Shown here one piece after another: positions 1 through 43,652 of a stretch of 64,000 nt of DNA. The stretch comes from an uncultured Thermoplasmatales archaeon (GTDB taxonomy: Archaea; Thermoplasmatota; E2; DHVEG-1): contig CAYFVP010000126.1 in assembly GCA_964346655.1 (NCBI GenBank), positions 7,877-71,876 of the forward strand. Reading direction: 5' to 3'. Position numbers and translations under genes: made by a program. Numbering within the stretch: position 1 is the stretch's first letter; every line of letters starts with the position of its first letter. Below the pieces are notes generated by a model, which was given only the letters and a program-made list of their open reading frames with translations, was not told the origin of the DNA and made no database searches.

Positions 1-79
1 TGGGAGTGTAGAATATAATAAAAATCTACCGATAAAAAAAAATATTAATGTAAACCATCAAGGAAGTATCAGTTCCTCG

Positions 80-1384
80 ATGGCTTTAGGATTTGATAAT
101 ATGACTATCAAACCCCGAGTAATAGGTAATATCGAAAATGGTTATAAATGTTATTCACAAAAACAACTTTTAACACATCTTGAAGTATCAAGTTGGCTTA
201 ATACAGTTAGTAAATCATCTCAAAAATATTATATTCGTGCAATAGAACTTTTTTGTAATTGGTGTGGAAAAAACCCATCACAACTTATTCTTGATAGAGA
301 TAAAGAAGTCAAAAGTGATAACCCTATTGAACGGAATAATACCCGTGATATGATTATAGAGTTCCGTAAACAACTTGAAAAAATGGGATATGCACCAAAA
401 AGTATCAATGTTATGGATGGTGCAATAAGAAGTTTTTACAGTTGTAATCTTGGTAAAATGGGAATGATAAACATACGGAATTATGCAGATGGAAAAGTAT
501 CTCTTTCAAAAGATTTAATACCAACACTTGAAGAATTAAAAAAGATGCTTGATACGGTCGATATTGAAGAAAAATTCCGTATTATATTTATTGCTCAAAC
601 AGGAATGAGAGTATCTGATGCTGTTAAACTCAAATATGGTGATATAAAAAGGGAACTTGAACAAAATAATAATCCAATTGCTATACGATTTTTACCTGTT
701 AAAGATCGTGATGTTATCGGTGAACGAATAACATTCTTAGGTAGTGATGGTATAGATATACTTAAACAATACCTTAATTATCGTAAGAAACGTGGTGAAA
801 TTCTTATTGATAATAGTCCATTATTTGCAAGTAGAACACGTAAACGTGGAATATATCAACCGATTACAGAACGTAATTTTAATGAAACAGTTAGAAAAGC
901 AGGAAAACGAATAGGACTTGTAAATAAAGATATAAAGTATGGTAGAATAAGAGTTCATTGTCTTAGGAAATTTTTTATCACACAACTAACAAATCATGGA
1001 GTAGAAGATAAAATAATCAACTTTCTAACATGTCATAAAATAAGTGATGTGGATAGTGTTTATTGGAATAGAAGAATAGACTCTTTACGTGAAATCTATA
1101 ATGATAGACAACAATATCTTAATCCTATTAATGGTGATAAGAAACATTATAACCTTGAAGAAATAAAAGATATTCAAAATAAGATACAGGATATGGATAA
1201 CCAAATACCCAGTATTGACCAAATTAAAGAACTAATAATTGAAGTATTAAATAAAAAACTAGAGGAAATTAAACCTAAAATCGAAAGTATAATTGTTGAC
1301 AATGAAAAAGATATAATCAAATATAGCAAAATGGGTTATAGTTGTGTTCCTATTGGAAAAAACAAATGGCTAATGAAAAACTAA
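80..1384 (+). CDS. Tyrosine recombinase / phage-type integrase (XerC/D-like core with ~100 aa acidic coiled-coil C-terminal extension)
   Basis: 434 aa; core-binding-like N-terminus; catalytic-type residues in order R (GMRVSDAVKL), H-x-x-R (RVHCLRKFF), Y (DSVYWNRR); at window edge so att/tRNA target not visible. Confidence 0.8.
   Translation: MALGFDNMTIKPRVIGNIENGYKCYSQKQLLTHLEVSSWLNTVSKSSQKYYIRAIELFCNWCGKNPSQLILDRDKEVKSDNPIERNNTRDMIIEFRKQLEKMGYAPKSINVMDGAIRSFYSCNLGKMGMINIRNYADGKVSLSKDLIPTLEELKKMLDTVDIEEKFRIIFIAQTGMRVSDAVKLKYGDIKRELEQNNNPIAIRFLPVKDRDVIGERITFLGSDGIDILKQYLNYRKKRGEILIDNSPLFASRTRKRGIYQPITERNFNETVRKAGKRIGLVNKDIKYGRIRVHCLRKFFITQLTNHGVEDKIINFLTCHKISDVDSVYWNRRIDSLREIYNDRQQYLNPINGDKKHYNLEEIKDIQNKIQDMDNQIPSIDQIKELIIEVLNKKLEEIKPKIESIIVDNEKDIIKYSKMGYSCVPIGKNKWLMKN
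80..1384 (+). mobile_element. Integrase marker of a probable integrated element (cargo boundary not determinable from the window)
   Basis: integrase followed by convergent/divergent uncharacterised small genes (1444-3585) before the housekeeping metabolic operons begin at ~6 kb. Confidence 0.4.
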
Positions 1385-1443
1385 CTTTGAAATTCCTCAA
1401 GTTTAATTTTGACATCATTTCTAAAAAACTCTAAAAAAATAAT

Positions 1444-2265
1444 TCAAGTCGGAAACAAAAAAAATTCTTCTCCTATTTCGTCCTCCCAATTAAATTGAAG
1501 TAAATCATTTTTACATTTTGGACAAATATCGTTTTTAGCTTGTTTTTTATTAATCCATATAGCACATTCAATATTATTACATAGATAATCAGCTTCGGCT
1601 ATTTTATCTTCATGAAAACCCTTTTTATTAACTCTATCAATTTCACACATTGGTTTTGGCAAAGACCTCACACAGATGCGGTCGACATAATTTTCATTAT
1701 ATTCATCCAAAACTGTTAATAAAAACCTTATTATTAATTCATTTAATTCCTCTAAACTGCTGTAATTATAATGATACAACTGGTCTGTTCTTGGTAATAA
1801 TTCTAATAATTTACCTATTAAAACATCAGAAGCCCCTAATACAATTTTCCCATTTTTTTTTACTTCTTCTTCAAAAACTCCATAAATTAAGTTTTTTATT
1901 AATTGATAATTAACAAATTTTGGATTTTTATTTACCAATATATCAAGTAAATAATCAAGTTCAGAATGTGAGCCTTTCCCAGCCCCTTTTACTGAAAAAA
2001 TCCATATACCAGTATCCTGTGACTCAATAAAATATTGACATTTCAATGAATTATTGATGCGAGAATTGTTAGTTTTATTTAATTTTTTGGGAAAATGAAA
2101 ATCCTCTACAATAAATGTGCTACCAAATCCACTTTTCCTAATATATTTTTTAATATCTTTTCTCAATTGAAATTCATTTTTAGGATGTGATGAACCAAAA
2201 ACTACTATTTCTAACATTTGTTTATCGGAATCATTAAGTATGATTGACATGTTTATAGTGAACAT
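1444..2265 (-). CDS. Hypothetical protein: N-terminal Rossmannoid LOG/SLOG- or TIR-like domain (weak motif match) + C-terminal zinc ribbon
   Basis: 273 aa; N-term 'EIVVFGSSHP' and 'KGAGKGSHSELDYLL' resemble LOG/SLOG 'VFGGS' and 'PGGxGTxEE' motifs; C-term 'CNNIECAIW...CPKCKND' 4-Cys ribbon. Confidence 0.4.
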   Translation of the reverse strand: MFTINMSIILNDSDKQMLEIVVFGSSHPKNEFQLRKDIKKYIRKSGFGSTFIVEDFHFPKKLNKTNNSRINNSLKCQYFIESQDTGIWIFSVKGAGKGSHSELDYLLDILVNKNPKFVNYQLIKNLIYGVFEEEVKKNGKIVLGASDVLIGKLLELLPRTDQLYHYNYSSLEELNELIIRFLLTVLDEYNENYVDRICVRSLPKPMCEIDRVNKKGFHEDKIAEADYLCNNIECAIWINKKQAKNDICPKCKNDLLQFNWEDEIGEEFFLFPT

Positions 2266-2368
2266 ATAAAAGATACATTTAGATATTTAGGTTGAATTTA
2301 TTAAAACAGGTTGAAAATAACAAACCTTATAAAGGATAAAAACAATATATATATGTTACGGAGGATAA

Positions 2369-2920
2369 ATGCCAAAAAATCTCGATGAACAGGCTATGGT
2401 AGCTAAAGCATTTGCTACACTATCTGATATAACTTCAAGAATTATAGTAAATAAATTAGAGAATGACAATTTGTCTTTTACAGAATTGCAAAAATCAACC
2501 AGATTAGATAAAAATTCGTTATATTATAAAATAAAGAAATTAATTAAATCAGGAATTATTGTCAATTATTATCAGAAAAGAGAAGACACATCTGAATATT
2601 CTTTTTATAAAATAACTTCGTTTGGAAAAAAAATATTGGATCAACTTGATATTTCAGTTGTGAAAAAAAGACCTATTGTAACAACGGATAAAAAATCTGA
2701 ATTTTATAATTTTAAAGAAGATATAAATGAATTATATAGATTTCTTCCAGTTTCTTTTGACTCCTATATAAAAATGAATATTAAACGAGCTAGCATTTGC
2801 GATGAAATTGAAAATAAGAGAAAAATAAAATTATTAAAAGATATTAGATTTTTTGAAGATAATTGGTATGAGGTTAATAAATTCAAGACGGAATACAGAA
2901 AGAAAATGGAAACAATATGA
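2369..2920 (+). CDS. ArsR/winged-helix family transcriptional regulator
   Basis: 183 aa; N-terminal wHTH-like segment 'LSDITSRIIVNKLENDNLSFTELQKSTRLDKNSLYYKIKKLIKSGII'; preceded by TATA-like 'atatatata' and SD 'ggagga'. Confidence 0.6.
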   Translation: MPKNLDEQAMVAKAFATLSDITSRIIVNKLENDNLSFTELQKSTRLDKNSLYYKIKKLIKSGIIVNYYQKREDTSEYSFYKITSFGKKILDQLDISVVKKRPIVTTDKKSEFYNFKEDINELYRFLPVSFDSYIKMNIKRASICDEIENKRKIKLLKDIRFFEDNWYEVNKFKTEYRKKMETI

Positions 2921-3585
2921 AAATAGAAAATTTTGAATCAGACCTTTCTTCAATTTCATATGAGATATTTGAGTCAACTATCCCAGTAACATATATTGTT
3001 AATTATCTCGAAAAAAACAAAAATTTTGCTGGAAAACCCGAAATTAGTGTAGAAGAAAATATAAAAATAGTAAGATATAAAGATGCCATTATTACAATTA
3101 ATGAAGATTCTTTTGAAATACCTCTACTGCATTTATCTGAGTATAATATTTCAGTTGCCGTTGATAAAGCCTCATCTAAAGATGCAAAAATGATTTGTGA
3201 TACTATTCTTAGTCAAATTCCTAAACCAATTTATAATAAACTAAAAATTAAAGAATATTATAGAACTACAGTTCGTGTTAAAACTAATTTTAGAATATCA
3301 AATTTAATCAAAGATGATTACATAGATAAATTCAACGAGATAAAAAAAACCTTTCCAAAATTTGAAAAAACTGAAAGAGACTTACAAATACCTGGACTGC
3401 ATTTAAGAATTACACCTGTTATTAAAGGCGATTATGCCTCACGAGTAGTAAAAGGATTAGAACCAATGGTAAGCTATGCGTTAGATTTCCATTTTGCATC
3501 ATCAACTGACTATGAAAATAATATTTTAACAGTTACGGCAGACCTTGAAGATACTAAAATTAAACAAATCCTCCAACAAATATAA
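2917..3585 (+). CDS. Hypothetical protein (no recognisable motif), translationally coupled to upstream HTH gene
   Basis: 222 aa ORF; ATGA start/stop overlap with 2369-2920. Confidence 0.45.
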   Translation: MKIENFESDLSSISYEIFESTIPVTYIVNYLEKNKNFAGKPEISVEENIKIVRYKDAIITINEDSFEIPLLHLSEYNISVAVDKASSKDAKMICDTILSQIPKPIYNKLKIKEYYRTTVRVKTNFRISNLIKDDYIDKFNEIKKTFPKFEKTERDLQIPGLHLRITPVIKGDYASRVVKGLEPMVSYALDFHFASSTDYENNILTVTADLEDTKIKQILQQI

Positions 3586-3774
3586 GAAAAAATTTATTTT
3601 GAACTGCTGAACCTTGTAATTCCATTCCTTCTTTCCAACCGTATTTTTTAATATAAGTATAGAAGCTATAATACTAGCTCTGACATATTAAAATTGCCAT
3701 ACTCACATTAAATAGAAATAAAACATAGGCAAAATGTGATGTTTAACGTCCATTTAATTTATTAAAAATTTTTA

Positions 3775-5745
3775 TTAATTAAGTTCAACACTATTTATCT
3801 CACTTAGATCTGCAAGGCTGTTCATTTTTACCATTTTACTAGAAATTGTGTAAAGAGTATCTTCGATGTATAACGAACGAGAAATAAAAGAAGAAGAATC
3901 TCGCCAGTGCCACCAATATTCATCTTTTTGTTTGTCATCCTCACTAACATGTGTGATCCTATCTCTGTATTCGAAACCATTTAAATTTAACCTAATAACA
4001 AAAGCACCTTGGAAGGTAAACTCTCCATATATACTATCAGGAATGATATCGTATTGGTTTTTTATTTCTTCACTTATTTCATAGAGGCTCACAGGTATTA
4101 CAAGTAGTTCTTTTTCTTTATCAAACAAAAATGCCTTATGATCATGTAATGCTGGGCTATCTGTTCCTCTGTCACCAATTATTATTTTATCTACTTCTTT
4201 TGGGTTTTCAAAATTACTTACATCAAAAAGAGCAATCTTTATTCCCTGATACCAAGCAAAGTTCCCATAGCTTGATTCAACTGTTTCTTTTCCAATACCA
4301 ATAATATGATTCTCATCATATGGATGTAAATAATCTGAGTAACCTGGTATTTTCAGATAACCCATAATTTTTGGATTATAAGGATCTGACAAATCGATTG
4401 TAAAAAATGGATCGATTTTTTTAAAGGTAACAAGATAAGCCTTGTCGCCCATAAATCTGGAAGAGTAGATTTGTTCCCCTTCTGCAATACCTTCTATTGA
4501 AGATATGCGATCAAGGTTTTCGTCAAAAATAAAAATATTATTTTGAGATGGATTTTCATCATCCCAAACATAACCAATGGTTGTTGCTATTCTAAAAAAA
4601 TTGTTGTGTTCATCCATTGAGAACTGATTCAAAATGTGACCAGGAACCTCATTTTTATCTAAATAATTTATCTCTCCATTTTTAACTTGAATTTTATGAA
4701 TTGCTGTGGTTTCCTCAGGTGGTCTATATATCAATCCATCCGATTGAATTGTATCATAATTATAACTTGTATAAACAAGATAAATGTTGTTTTTTGACAT
4801 GTACATATTTTGTGATACACCAATCAAAAAACTTTTTTCATTAACTGTCAATCCATCAAGATTAATTGAAATCACATGCGTCATTGTATCAACAGCTTCA
4901 GGTGAATCAATATAATAGATTTGATCATATGGAATTTTACTTGTATCATTGTCAATTTTTATTTCAGGGATATTTAATGTGTAATTTCCATCATGATATC
5001 TAAAAATATAATATGAATATTCTGATGAAACAACATAGATGTAATTGCCAATCATTCTAGAGTCAAAGTATGTTCCATCGATTTCAATATTTTTTACAAG
5101 GTCTGGATTTTCTTTATCAGATGTATCATAAATTTTTATTGCTGAGGATGAAACCTCCCATGTAACCTTTTCAGTTACAACCTCTTCTGATATTACATCG
5201 GTTTCAATATACCCATTGTACAATATTGGATAATTATATGAACTTCCAAACACAATCAAATAATTATCATTAATAAAGAACTCATTAATGTATACATCAT
5301 TATCAATAATTATTTTAGAAAGAATTGTGGCATTTTTTGCAGGATTTGCTTTTAATATATACAGGGTTTGATCTGCTAAAACATATAGATATATCCCATC
5401 TGTTTTAACAATATCTGGTTCATCAACACCCTCGACTTGAACATTTGTTGTCGAATAATCTGTAGAACCATCATCTGAAGATTTGGAATTTGAACTATCA
5501 GACTCGGCCATAGGTAGAGCTATTCTGTTACCTGATAAGAATCCATATTGATAATTTCCTGTACCATAGGTTTCATAATTTGTTTTTAAAAAATTTGATA
5601 ATTCATCATATGATGAAAAGGTTTTAACTTGATATGAATATTCATCATTTAGATTATTTATTAATACATATGCTCCAAAAATAATTCCAATTACTAAAAT
5701 AGTTAATACAAAAAGACCCTTGAATTTAATATTATTTTTTCCCAT
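3775..5745 (-). CDS. Secreted/membrane-anchored protein with C-terminal beta-propeller (COG4880-like archaeal/Bacillus secreted propeller family)
   Basis: 656 aa; N-terminal signal anchor 'LFVLTILVIGIIFGAYVL'; long Tyr/Asp/Gly-rich propeller-like C-terminal region. Confidence 0.55.
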   Translation of the reverse strand: MGKNNIKFKGLFVLTILVIGIIFGAYVLINNLNDEYSYQVKTFSSYDELSNFLKTNYETYGTGNYQYGFLSGNRIALPMAESDSSNSKSSDDGSTDYSTTNVQVEGVDEPDIVKTDGIYLYVLADQTLYILKANPAKNATILSKIIIDNDVYINEFFINDNYLIVFGSSYNYPILYNGYIETDVISEEVVTEKVTWEVSSSAIKIYDTSDKENPDLVKNIEIDGTYFDSRMIGNYIYVVSSEYSYYIFRYHDGNYTLNIPEIKIDNDTSKIPYDQIYYIDSPEAVDTMTHVISINLDGLTVNEKSFLIGVSQNMYMSKNNIYLVYTSYNYDTIQSDGLIYRPPEETTAIHKIQVKNGEINYLDKNEVPGHILNQFSMDEHNNFFRIATTIGYVWDDENPSQNNIFIFDENLDRISSIEGIAEGEQIYSSRFMGDKAYLVTFKKIDPFFTIDLSDPYNPKIMGYLKIPGYSDYLHPYDENHIIGIGKETVESSYGNFAWYQGIKIALFDVSNFENPKEVDKIIIGDRGTDSPALHDHKAFLFDKEKELLVIPVSLYEISEEIKNQYDIIPDSIYGEFTFQGAFVIRLNLNGFEYRDRITHVSEDDKQKDEYWWHWRDSSSFISRSLYIEDTLYTISSKMVKMNSLADLSEINSVELN

Positions 5746-40853: not shown

Positions 40854-43652
40854 TTAAATCCGGAAATTTAGTATGATTTTAAGAATTAAATTAATCCTAT
40901 GATATGATTGAAATAACGATGTTAATAAAGAATTATATAAATATTTAGTTCTAGGAATAGTTACTTCCAGAGTTCCCCAATCACTTTCATATGTATAAGG
41001 ATCATGGGCTTTGGCTTTAATTATATATTTATCTTTTTCCTCCCATATATGATATGCTATAACCTCTGTTCCAGATGGAAAAACGTCAGTTTTATCAATT
41101 GTTCCATCTCCCCAATCAATGGTATAAAATAAATCATGGTTGTCCTCATCTGTTGAAACAAATGTATATTTATACATAATACCAGGTTTACCCTCACTAG
41201 AACCTTTTATTACAGGTGTACTTGGAGGATTACTTGGGTAACCATAGGGTTTCATAAATGGATATTTATCTTCACTTGAGCCTCCAGGGACATAGTACGG
41301 AGTATCACCTATCCCATCTTCATTAGAATCTGTTCCTATGTAATCATCCCAATAATTACCACCAGATGAATAATCATTATCCCATTGATTAGGATTACCT
41401 GTATCATATGCATTCTGATTGTTACGCATGAAATTATTATGATAAATTAAATTGTTATTTGAAGAACCACTTATTTTTAAACCTATATTATTATCAGTTA
41501 TATCAATATCACTAATAATATTAAAATCTGAATTAATCTCTATCCCTGAACCAAACTCGTCATCTCCGCTATTTCGAATAATAAAATTACTAACTCTTAC
41601 ACCTTCAGATAAAACAGTTAATACATTACCATTTCCCAAGCCATCTATTACAGGTTTTTTTTCACTTTCTCCAATAAGAACTATGGATTTATCGATTATT
41701 ATATCTATATCAGGAGTGTCAGCAGAATATTCTCCTTCATAAACAATAACATTTCCAGGACTCCCAACTACATCTATTGCATCTTGAATACTGTCAAAAT
41801 GATCAAATTTCCAACCAGGAGTAGAAGAGTTAAAATCGTCATCAACAAAAACATCAGTTGGATTCAAATTTTCAATAGCATCCAAGTCAAATCCAGGATT
41901 TGGTTCAGTAGCACTACCACTACCATCATCTTTTATTTTTATAAAACGAGCACTATCAACTCTTATATCTTCAAGATCAAAATTTGTAGTTCCAGACCCA
42001 GTTCCAAGTTCTGTCCATGATCCATCCCAATTATTTGATACATATACAATATAACCATCTGAAGTTGCATCTCCCTCATAAACAGTAAAATCATCCCCTT
42101 TACAATTAAAAATCCTACCAACTTCACCCATATCTAAGACAATTGTTCCTCCAACACCTAAAGATGCAAACTCATTATCTGGAGGACCAAGAGCAGATAT
42201 TGCTTCTGTAGGATTATTCTGAAAATTATTTGGATAATTATAAGGATCATAAAAATTTACCCAAGTAACCTGTTCTGCATAACGACTTCCTCCACGTGTC
42301 ATTTCAATATTAAGGACTGATGGCCCTGATCCAGAAATAGTTACTTGATGCTCTTGCTCTTCATAACCGTTTGCTCTAATTATAACATTGTATGTTCCAG
42401 GTAAAAGAGGTTTATGATAATCACCTATTTTTGGATCGGTAAAACAAGGCCAATATGCTTCCTCAACCCAAATAGTTGCTGCAATAGGTAGGCCTGTTTC
42501 AGAGTCAGTGATAATTCCAGTAAGACCCATATCTGCTGCTTCAATAATATCTAACATACCATCTCTATTTTTATTCCAAACATAAGGAATATTTGAATTT
42601 TCAGTTTCAATGGTCCAGTCAATATCGCCTCTGCACCCATAGCTGAAATCGTTGGTGTCGCCTCGAGTTTGATACCAATCATATCCTTCAATTACCACAT
42701 AATCATTATAGGTTCCGTATTGGTTAGAAAGATGAACAACAACATCATTGTCTGCAACAGGTTCTCCTTTATAATTCCAAATATAGTTAATGTATTTAGC
42801 CGTAGTATGATAAGATAAAGAAAACACAAAATTATTATCAAGTGCATGTTCTCTAATTGCCTGAGTTTCAGGTTGAGAGAAAGGGCTAGGACTACCGCCA
42901 GCTCCACCCCATAAATATCCATAGTCTCTGTTTAGATCAACATAATTTGCATTACTCCTTCTTAAAACCTCTCTACCATCAGGATTGACCATGGGAATAA
43001 TCCAAGTTTCACGGTTATCAACAAGATTTTTTATTCTTGAATTGCTATCATAGTTTTCCACCATGTGCCATGCAAGAAGTAATGGCAATTCAACAGACAT
43101 TATTTCATTTCCATGATGGCATCCACAAATTCTTACCTCTGGTTCATTTTCTTCTATTTCTGGATTATCAGTGATTTTAAGACCCCAAATTGTTCTATCT
43201 TGAACACTACTACCTAAATCATAAAGAACCGCAATATCTGGATAGGTATTAGCGATATCTTGTAATTCAATAGTCAATTCAGAATATTTATGAAATTCTT
43301 CTAGTAATAAAGGATTTTCTTTCCAATCCATCATTTCAGCATAATCTTTAAATAAAATTATCGGATTCAAATTTTCTTTCTCAAGCCAAATTATATCATC
43401 ATTGGTTGCAAAAATTTTGACGTAATTATCATCTCTATCTATTATTGTAATACCATGATTAATTATTTTTCCTAAAGCAAAAGAATCAGACAATTCAACT
43501 TTAACAATAGCAGGATTTATGAAAATAAATGATTTATTATCAGTTTTATTAAAATTATTTTCTAAACCACTTGCAAAAGAAGCCGTTATCAAAAAAATTA
43601 TCAAAATAATTAATAAAAACTTATTGTTAATTCCAGAAGTTAATTTTTTCAT
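40854..43652 (-). CDS. Secreted M14-type zinc carboxypeptidase fused to right-handed beta-helix domain and C-terminal PKD-like module
   Basis: 932 aa; 'ICGCHHGNEIMS' HxxE zinc motif; 'NIGLKISGSSNNNLIYHNNFMRNN' beta-helix repeats; C-term 'YTIDWGDGT'. Confidence 0.6.
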   Translation of the reverse strand: MKKLTSGINNKFLLIILIIFLITASFASGLENNFNKTDNKSFIFINPAIVKVELSDSFALGKIINHGITIIDRDDNYVKIFATNDDIIWLEKENLNPIILFKDYAEMMDWKENPLLLEEFHKYSELTIELQDIANTYPDIAVLYDLGSSVQDRTIWGLKITDNPEIEENEPEVRICGCHHGNEIMSVELPLLLAWHMVENYDSNSRIKNLVDNRETWIIPMVNPDGREVLRRSNANYVDLNRDYGYLWGGAGGSPSPFSQPETQAIREHALDNNFVFSLSYHTTAKYINYIWNYKGEPVADNDVVVHLSNQYGTYNDYVVIEGYDWYQTRGDTNDFSYGCRGDIDWTIETENSNIPYVWNKNRDGMLDIIEAADMGLTGIITDSETGLPIAATIWVEEAYWPCFTDPKIGDYHKPLLPGTYNVIIRANGYEEQEHQVTISGSGPSVLNIEMTRGGSRYAEQVTWVNFYDPYNYPNNFQNNPTEAISALGPPDNEFASLGVGGTIVLDMGEVGRIFNCKGDDFTVYEGDATSDGYIVYVSNNWDGSWTELGTGSGTTNFDLEDIRVDSARFIKIKDDGSGSATEPNPGFDLDAIENLNPTDVFVDDDFNSSTPGWKFDHFDSIQDAIDVVGSPGNVIVYEGEYSADTPDIDIIIDKSIVLIGESEKKPVIDGLGNGNVLTVLSEGVRVSNFIIRNSGDDEFGSGIEINSDFNIISDIDITDNNIGLKISGSSNNNLIYHNNFMRNNQNAYDTGNPNQWDNDYSSGGNYWDDYIGTDSNEDGIGDTPYYVPGGSSEDKYPFMKPYGYPSNPPSTPVIKGSSEGKPGIMYKYTFVSTDEDNHDLFYTIDWGDGTIDKTDVFPSGTEVIAYHIWEEKDKYIIKAKAHDPYTYESDWGTLEVTIPRTKYLYNSLLTSLFQSYHRINLILKIILNFRI

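Follow-up and report, generated by a model that had tools for sequence, protein, structure and literature searches.

The 64,000-nt stretch of DNA analysed here (hereafter the window; GenBank assembly GCA_964346655.1, contig CAYFVP010000126.1, positions 7,877 to 71,876) derives from an uncultured Thermoplasmatales archaeon and carries, near its beginning, three adjoining genes that are the subject of this report (Table 1). One of them encodes a protein of 273 amino acids (aa). Facing it is a gene for an ArsR/SmtB-like winged helix-turn-helix (wHTH; HTH for short) protein, followed by a gene for a 222-aa protein. For brevity, we call the 273-aa protein the effector, after its proposed role, the 222-aa protein the partner, and the set of genes the cassette. 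The open reading frame (ORF) of the effector is present exactly as the initial annotation of this DNA had claimed, and its surroundings are also as described there, with a tyrosine integrase on one side and, on the other, a divergent wHTH gene whose stop codon overlaps the start of the partner ORF. Met6 is an alternative start of the effector and is used in the 268-aa gene call P0001. A TATA-like box lies ~26 nt upstream of the Met6 codon, so the effector mRNA may be leaderless and start at Met6, as in P0001.

Table 1. Coordinates of the cassette, its parts and its neighbours. Positions are those of the window unless the contig L006 is named.
Feature	Position	Strand	Basis or remark
Tyrosine recombinase/integrase	1..1384 (L006 1871-3433)	plus	5' end cut by window start
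Effector ORF, 273 aa, ATG start	1444..2265	minus	ORF call
Zinc-ribbon-like Cys-rich module, residues ~198-262	1480..1674	minus	family alignment and model (pLDDT 82-95)
NDT-like alpha/beta domain, residues ~1-195	1681..2265	minus	motif I 'VVFGSSHP' (G24), motif II GAGKGSHSELDYL (G98, E102)
Codon of E102	1960-1962		
TATA-like box of effector, TTTTATAT	within 2248-2281	minus	
Divergent-promoter intergenic region, 103 nt	2266..2368	.	TATA-like palindrome (CCTTATAAAGG) and two TTCAACCT repeats
TTCAACCT repeats	2289-2296 and 2308-2315	minus	19 nt apart
ArsR/SmtB-like winged-HTH protein, 183 aa	2369..2920	plus	C-terminal ~90 aa variable
Partner, 222 aa	2917..3585	plus	start overlaps HTH stop (ATGA)
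Imperfect 48-nt direct repeat, left copy	L006 1414-1461		635 nt before window start
Imperfect 48-nt direct repeat, right copy	3731..3778 (L006 5780-5827)	plus	core AACGTCCATTTAATTTATTAAA at 3745-3766
Secreted beta-propeller protein, 656 aa	3775-5745		PF09826, E = 9e-161

The two strings that the initial annotation quoted from the effector are both there, 'VVFGSS' at residues 21-26 and GAGKGSHSELDYLL at residues 94-107, and chance does not account for them. G24, G98, E102 and L103 are invariant in an alignment of 14-17 family members at identities down to 22%, and D84 and P59 are almost invariant. Glu102 forms part of a 'SELDYLL' motif. The proposal of a C-terminal ribbon holds for the Cys-rich, ribbon-like module itself but not for the CxxxC spacing given with it; the cysteines are arranged as C229-x4-C234 ... 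C248-x2-C251, that is CxxxxC, and C207 is additionally conserved. In the family alignment, C207, C229, C248 and C251 are kept in 7/7 ribbon-bearing members and C234 in most, and the whole module is missing from relatives of 154-199 aa. A Pfam scan of the effector gave no significant zinc-finger match (Ogr_Delta, E = 0.21). The full protein had no significant match to any Pfam, NCBIfam, PHROG or PADLOC model, and a PDB sequence search with this single protein returned no usable match.

To describe the fold, we built an AlphaFold2 (AF2) model of the effector on 14 sequences, with a predicted local distance difference test score (pLDDT) of 88 and a predicted template modelling score (pTM) of 0.87. 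The model has a three-layer, five-stranded alpha/beta domain of flavodoxin/Rossmann-like type at residues ~18-192, with a beta-hairpin insert at 127-143, and a small Cys-rich beta module at residues ~198-260. The Rossmannoid fold previously suggested for the N-terminal part is therefore confidently modelled, over ~195 aa. In structural comparisons, the model scored 10.2 against the cytidine monophosphate (CMP) hydrolase MilB, 9.9 against a nucleoside 2-deoxyribosyltransferase (NDT; 7m5h), 9.8 against the TIR domain of TIRAP, 9.5 against Rcl/DNPH1, 9.1-9.3 against further NDTs, and 8.7-9.2 against TIR-STING, TIR-SAVED and Cat1. CheY-like receivers scored 9.0-9.4, and because these values are near those of the NDTs, the fold by itself is not decisive. 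Still, the model does have the alpha/beta fold of an NDT, and in a Foldseek search against viral structure models the named matches were mostly nucleoside 2-deoxyribosyltransferases.

The initial annotation had placed this domain in the LOG/SLOG group, and we rejected that group as the closest family. Neither the window protein (E up to 1) nor any of the 17 family members had a LOG/SLOG match in Pfam, and the LOG-like structure 3bq9 (8.7) scored under MilB, the NDTs and DNPH1. The signature motifs of the group (GGGxxGxMG and PGGxGTxxE) are also absent as such, with 'VVFGSSHP' holding one conserved Gly and 'GAGKGSHSE' following the Gly/Glu spacing only loosely. The likeness lies in the Rossmann-like three-layer fold and in the resemblance of 'GAGKGSHSE' to the Gly-rich loop and Glu of 'PGGxGTxxE'. 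Sub-threshold sequence links go instead to PF05014, TIR_2 and DUF4062. What survives of the earlier assignment is the broader idea of a nucleotide-processing domain, since the protein falls within the broad N-glycosidase assemblage meant there, on its NDT/TIR side rather than the LOG/SLOG side.

The NDT family profile PF05014 (Nuc_deoxyrib_tr) was matched by 4/17 relatives at 12-18 bits (E = 0.0035-0.18), compared to a gathering threshold of 28.8 bits. The window protein had no PF05014 match in the Pfam scan and the family as a whole stayed below the gathering threshold; by Pfam's own criterion, the effector is outside PF05014. TIR_2 was matched by P0009 alone (E = 0.021; 15.7 bits vs. a 28-bit cut-off), no significant match to the TIR profiles PF13676 and PF01582 was found among the 17 family members, and one of these members gave a sub-threshold match to DUF4062. 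A profile made from seven short relatives had the NDT of L. leichmannii as its best PDB sequence match (E = 0.027). In this hmmsearch alignment, 'tGvglELdyvl' lies over 'TGLGMELGYAL', which places the invariant Glu102 on the nucleophile Glu98. Likewise, an hhalign comparison of the 17 family domains with 7 bona fide NDTs (6 fetched from Lactobacillus-group phages and 1 validated by a 69% tblastn match) covered 101 columns in the same Glu register, with E = 5.8e-4 and a probability of 29%. E102 thus aligns with the catalytic Glu of the G-x-G-x-E-L-G-Y motif in both methods. PDB searches with the 14-sequence and 17-domain profiles returned no usable match.

From these alignments, Glu102 is probably the catalytic residue of the family, and this conserved Glu is carried by the second of the two quoted motifs. 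We conclude that the N-terminal domain of the effector belongs to the NDT/TIR N-glycosidase superfamily as a divergent member, with a predicted activity of that kind. The residue preceding G24 bears on the possible substrate; ribbon-bearing members have Phe23 at this place, and most short forms have Tyr. Specificity for 2'-deoxy substrates is imposed in NDT and DNPH1 by a Tyr located after strand 1, which forms a hydrogen bond with the Glu, and NADase TIRs have Phe or Ala there (PMC11204291). Phe23 may sit at this 2'-deoxy-restricting position, with the hhalign register near strand 1 being offset by two positions. If Phe23 does replace that Tyr, ribo-substrates such as NAD+ or CMP-type nucleotides would be favoured, which we take as a hint only.

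Compared with the established members of the PF05014 family (NDT/PTD, DNPH1/Rcl and MilB/BlsM), the effector shares an aromatic-Gly motif after strand 1 and a Gly-rich loop followed by 'E-L-x-[YH]', with its Glu falling on E98. It differs in several ways. The effector has a 'VEDFHFP' loop and a long beta-hairpin insert (127-143), the window subfamily has Phe and no obvious Tyr before Gly24, and a zinc ribbon is added at the C-terminus of a protein that is tied to a wHTH regulator and a partner gene. In addition, the effector scores under every curated sequence threshold.

The effector family is new and very rare. A word-indexed search of 5.8 billion clusters recovered 4 relatives at 57-100% identity, with homologues at 57-80% among them, and an exhaustive HMMER pass over 1.84 billion representatives recovered 11. 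Three of these 11 are full-length proteins with the zinc ribbon (56%, 37%, and 29% identity), the most distant of which comes from a Thermoplasmata archaeon (MCK4456345.1). The other eight are short, comprising seven proteins of 120-199 aa that consist of the N-terminal domain only and one 72-aa fragment. A profile search added five further short forms, one of them annotated as Promethearchaeota archaeon, and a metagenome scan added one weak fragment. Zero relatives were found in a GTDB scan of 185,579 species-representative genomes and in a scan of IMG/VR viral contigs.

Despite its rarity, the family keeps consistent company. At 9/9 distinct loci with upstream sequence, the effector faces a homologous ArsR-like wHTH gene, and this pairing holds down to 22-29% identity and spans Thermoplasmata and Promethearchaeota. 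All distinct loci but one also have a third gene, downstream of the HTH gene, and it encodes a protein of 222-241 aa where the ribbon is present and an unrelated one of ~140 aa where the ribbon is absent (the two were rejected as homologues at an hhalign probability of 0.4%). In the close zinc-ribbon forms (L001/L002, L003, L004/L005, and the window), the effector is divergent from an HTH gene of 180-186 aa and a 222-aa partner. The Thermoplasmata form at 29% identity (L028-L030) has a 250-aa HTH protein, 35% identical over the wHTH, and a 235-241-aa partner that is homologous to the 222-aa protein (hhalign probability 96%, E = 2.7e-9). Gene by gene, this Thermoplasmata trio is 29% (effector), 35% (HTH), and 20% (partner) identical to that of the window. 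At L027, which carries the form at 37% identity, the ORF upstream is partial and homologous to the HTH gene. Ribbon-less effectors that face a homologous HTH gene measure 154-172 aa; at L007-L009, L013, and L015 the HTH protein has 169-176 aa and is accompanied by a partner of 136-141 aa, and at L031 there is an HTH gene only (116 aa).

Co-occurrence of the three genes across genomes had been proposed as a check on their functional link, and the trio is indeed together wherever the ribbon form is found (4 distinct close loci and the Thermoplasmata locus at 29%). The conserved core is the effector plus the divergent HTH gene, and the third gene is exchangeable, its type tracking the zinc ribbon. 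We take this tracking as indirect evidence that partner and ribbon act together. The modules also differ in how far they have diverged between loci. Between L003 and L004, the partner is 97% and the HTH protein 92% identical, vs. 78% for the effector, and these mosaic identities indicate recombination between cassette modules.

The HTH protein had sub-threshold Pfam matches to HTH_24, PadR, and HTH_20, and in PADLOC it matched Csa3/CARF models at its wHTH part only (E = 3e-8). It also gave weak matches to the ORF80 family (E = 6e-4) and to a phage 'replication initiation O-like' PHROG (E = 3e-5). The 222-aa partner matched no Pfam, NCBIfam, PHROG, or PADLOC family and has no HExxH motif; its N-terminal half is predicted to have a TBP-like/helix-grip fold.

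The two TTCAACCT repeats between effector and HTH gene are the only copies in the 64-kb window, and the spaced pair recurs in L003, L004, L005, and L006. Among the window, L003, and L004, the intergenic region (2266-2368, 2030-2141, and 3666-3777, respectively) is 92-95% identical, vs. 75-84% for each of the three coding regions. Ribbon-less systems have a perfect palindrome in this place, GGTCAAT-N4-ATTGACC, near the HTH start (L007 1240-1260 and L013 5165-5185), and it is kept though the surrounding intergenic flanks diverge. These repeats and palindromes are candidate operators, at which a dimeric wHTH repressor would be expected to govern both promoters. A side observation concerns the ribbon-less loci. 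At L007 (1997-4075), a 692-aa protein whose sole family match is a C-terminal ribbon (Zn_ribbon_3, E = 8e-4) is encoded on the same strand as the ribbon-less effector and downstream of it, an arrangement shared by three contigs. This protein might supply the ribbon function in trans.

The integrase beside the effector belongs to what may be a small mobile element. Because the window cuts this gene, we also used L006 (contig JABAOC010003755.1, GCA_012975005.1), whose DNA is identical to the window and extends 2049 nt further upstream (window position = L006 position - 2049). The ORF at 80-1384 of the window (434 aa) lacks the 5' end of its gene, which encodes 520 aa and starts 178 nt before the window. 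The window part matched PF00589 (E = 2.3e-13) and Phage_integr_3, and the full-length protein matched XerA_Arch (E = 1e-19) and the phrog_1 integrase (E = 7e-22). A gene for a 55-aa ribbon-helix-helix (RHH) protein (ParD/CopG-like, E = 1e-6) lies ahead of the integrase gene, outside the window. ORFs of ~55 aa near other trios were considered as homologues of this gene and rejected on comparison.

Two copies of a 48-nt imperfect direct repeat, 81% identical and at a spacing of 4366, bracket exactly the RHH, integrase, effector, HTH, and partner genes as a 4.4-kb block. With a score of 25, this was the best direct repeat in 9 kb; 60 dinucleotide shuffles gave 15.2 +/- 1.4 with a maximum of 19, and 0/60 reached 25. 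The repeat core AACGTCCATTTAATTTATTAAA is unique within the window. The block thus combines a tyrosine recombinase with flanking direct repeats, the features by which an integrated element is recognised, and we regard the repeats as candidate attL and attR sites of a 4.4-kb integrated element. Scans of the window and L006 for tRNA genes and Rfam families found nothing, and hence no tRNA target. In the nearest genome (a 'Thermoplasmatales archaeon' metagenome-assembled genome [MAG] whose beta-propeller protein is 74% identical), the block is missing downstream of the orthologous gene, and synteny is broken there with no exact empty site. The beta-propeller gene next to the cassette ends inside the right direct repeat, which includes its stop codon, and the 3' end of this gene may therefore have been the integration site of the element.

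Other copies of the cassette adjoin genes for DDE transposases, a DUF4062 protein, a NOV_C protein, T2SSE/T2SSF ATPases, and a SIR2-TPR protein. The expectation that such genes would have mobile or defence-type surroundings is in line with these flanks, which often carry an integrase, DDE transposases, SIR2-TPR, NOV_C, or DUF4062. At L004, a DUF4062 protein and a small NOV_C-domain protein (177-887 and 4798-5157) flank the trio together with a DDE_Tnp_1 transposase, in what looks like a small island of conflict-type genes. DUF4062 is an NDT/TIR-related domain family. In a Promethearchaeota MAG (L010), a 909-aa SIR2_2 plus TPR protein (883-3612) lies two genes downstream of a ribbon-less member, with a 72-aa YgjP-like fragment between them, and matches the SIR2, TPR, and candidate-system models of PADLOC. 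At L003 (3188-7385), the genes that come after the effector encode a 493-aa unknown protein, a T2SSE/PilB-type ATPase, and a T2SSF membrane protein, and this set may serve a mobile element in pilus formation or DNA transfer. No system model of PADLOC-DB 2.0 was matched by the 273-aa protein, its 222-aa partner, the integrase, or P0012. The earlier statement that nothing here matches a named system is correct, at least for the 273-aa and 222-aa proteins in PADLOC.

We favour the explanation that the 273-aa protein is the effector of a self-regulated conflict cassette, which would act either against viruses, including by abortive infection, or as an addiction module of its carrier element, and we put the probability of this at about one half. 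Catalysis, substrate, repression, contact between partner and ribbon, and the biological role of the cassette are all parts that we infer. In such a cassette, Glu102 would cleave the N-glycosidic bond of a nucleotide, which could be NAD(P)+, a nucleoside monophosphate, or a deoxynucleoside monophosphate. The result would be either the loss of an essential metabolite or the release of a product that halts the cell or the virus. The wHTH protein would bind the repeat or palindrome operators and repress both promoters, and hence the effector. The partner, which would be translationally coupled to the HTH protein, would probably contact the zinc ribbon as a neutraliser or as a sensor of the trigger. 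The carrier in the present case would be the 4.4-kb element with its RHH gene, tyrosine integrase, and 48-nt direct repeats, and the cassette would be its cargo. A more specific version is possible but somewhat doubtful, namely an undescribed immune or abortive-infection system of Thermoplasmata and Promethearchaeota (Asgard), in which an NDT/TIR N-glycosidase, silenced by its own HTH repressor at a hyper-conserved operator and licensed or neutralised by an exchangeable, ribbon-docking partner, would destroy NAD(P)+ or another nucleotide pool on infection, with mini-integrative elements spreading the cassette.

Several points weigh against the conflict cassette. All sequence links to NDT and TIR are below curated thresholds, and the window protein itself is without a Pfam match. 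The broader 17-domain profile came back empty from the PDB, the hhalign probability was just 29%, and the model of the partner is of low confidence (pLDDT 60). The cassette matched no defence-system model in PADLOC, no locus came from the viral-contig collection, and the 'defence-like' genes in the flanks are a small and mixed set. The GC evidence for an island is weak as well; host DNA upstream of the left repeat is equally AT-rich, and we dropped that argument. The conflict role as such is inferred from sequence, model, and context. Finally, when compared to type II toxin-antitoxin modules, the conserved intergenic repeats do suggest an autoregulatory operator, but the effector is divergent from the HTH-partner operon and is not co-transcribed with a neutraliser, which is atypical for that type.

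We weighed these points against other explanations, which are disfavoured to differing degrees by the rarity, mobility, and mosaicism of the cassette, by its obligatory partners, and by the invariant catalytic-type Glu. The effector could be a hydrolase or transferase of the NDT/DNPH1/MilB type that serves in the salvage or removal of unusual (modified) nucleotides. Its ArsR-type regulator would induce it, and it would travel as ordinary cargo and play no part in conflict. Its closest structures (MilB, NDT, and DNPH1) are indeed metabolic, a divergent ArsR/MarR-type regulator is the standard layout of inducible metabolic genes, and the absence of a matching defence model would also be expected. 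However, we consider this unlikely. The family is very rare and patchy, with 11 members among 1.84 billion representatives and 0 in 185,579 species-representative genomes, and the cassette has a different location in each genome, beside an integrase or insertion sequences. Moreover, metabolic NDTs have neither a zinc ribbon nor an obligatory third partner that swaps with the ribbon, and mosaic exchange among modules also speaks against salvage or detoxification.

Apart from the integrase and the RHH (CopG/ParD-like) gene, the 4.4-kb element carries essentially nothing but the trio. This could also mean that the trio maintains, replicates, or regulates a small integrative, plasmid-like element, with an HTH protein of the ORF80/Rep-binding type and two other proteins that aid propagation of the element rather than conflict. 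The weak ORF80 and 'replication initiation O-like' matches of the HTH protein would fit such a module, but they are confined to the generic wHTH. None of the three proteins contained a primase, polymerase, helicase, or Rep domain in the library scans. Furthermore, the trio also occurs without an adjacent integrase (on a 67.5-kb Thermoplasmata contig and on a 14-kb contig), and the ribbon-less versions adjoin chromosomal genes, leaving element maintenance as an improbable function. We give slightly less credence again to a non-catalytic, SLOG/TIR-like nucleotide sensor whose signal is relayed to transcription by the ribbon and the HTH protein. The sole invariant acidic residue of the family coincides with the catalytic Glu of NDTs, no SLOG, LOG, or CARF ligand-binding model was matched (the Csa3/CARF matches cover only the wHTH of the HTH protein), and no cyclase or signal-generating gene is linked at any locus.

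Operons of the BrxR/CapW and CapH-CapP type encode a repressor, sometimes with a co-transcribed second protein, that is divergent from the effector across a conserved intergenic operator. Unlike these, the cassette has an ArsR-like HTH protein and no WYL or peptidase partner, and its own partner is without HExxH. Closer to the predicted activity is Retron-Eco1 (Ec86), in which an NDT-like N-glycosidase effector hydrolyses NAD(P)+ in phage defence (PMC12673091) and which sets a precedent for an NDT-like glycosidase in that role. The proposed conflict cassette would resemble it in using an NDT-superfamily enzyme as the toxic arm of a multi-gene module, which in Retron-Eco1 is kept inactive by partner components. 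By contrast, the cassette contains no reverse transcriptase or multicopy single-stranded DNA (msDNA), has archaeal hosts, and is under apparent transcriptional control (HTH plus operator) with a protein partner. It also differs from the TIR NADases (Thoeris ThsB, TIR-STING, TIR-SAVED, and Cat1) in that the window protein has no TIR Pfam match and that the cassette has neither a linked STING, SAVED, or CARF sensor domain nor a signal-generating enzyme.

If the conflict cassette is real, it would be an archaeal, transcription-factor-controlled addition to the few immune or addiction systems whose nucleotide glycosidases are of the NDT type and not of the TIR or SIR2 type. Effectors of this class would then also be known from Thermoplasmata and Asgard archaea, two groups with a poorly charted defence repertoire. 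If the effector is a salvage enzyme only, the interest would be limited to a new and very rare NDT subfamily. In either case, the cassette is compact, with 2-3 genes in 2.1 kb, and is directly testable, and the co-variation of ribbon and partner, together with an intergenic region conserved beyond the genes, provides falsifiable handles on its regulation.

Elsewhere, the window is an ordinary piece of archaeal chromosome, with genes for methylmalonyl-CoA mutase, acyl-CoA dehydrogenase, hydantoinases, Hdr/Mvh-like proteins, aldehyde ferredoxin oxidoreductase, and Elp3, along with peptidases of the C25, C10, and M14 families. The large secreted peptidases among these lie at 27687-30068, 34884-36209, and 40854-43652 (C25 gingipain-like, C10 streptopain-like, and M14 carboxypeptidase), and surface proteins with PKD, FG-GAP, or PQQ repeats are also encoded in the window. 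This cluster of secreted peptidases and surface proteins is consistent with a protein-degrading, heterotrophic archaeon.

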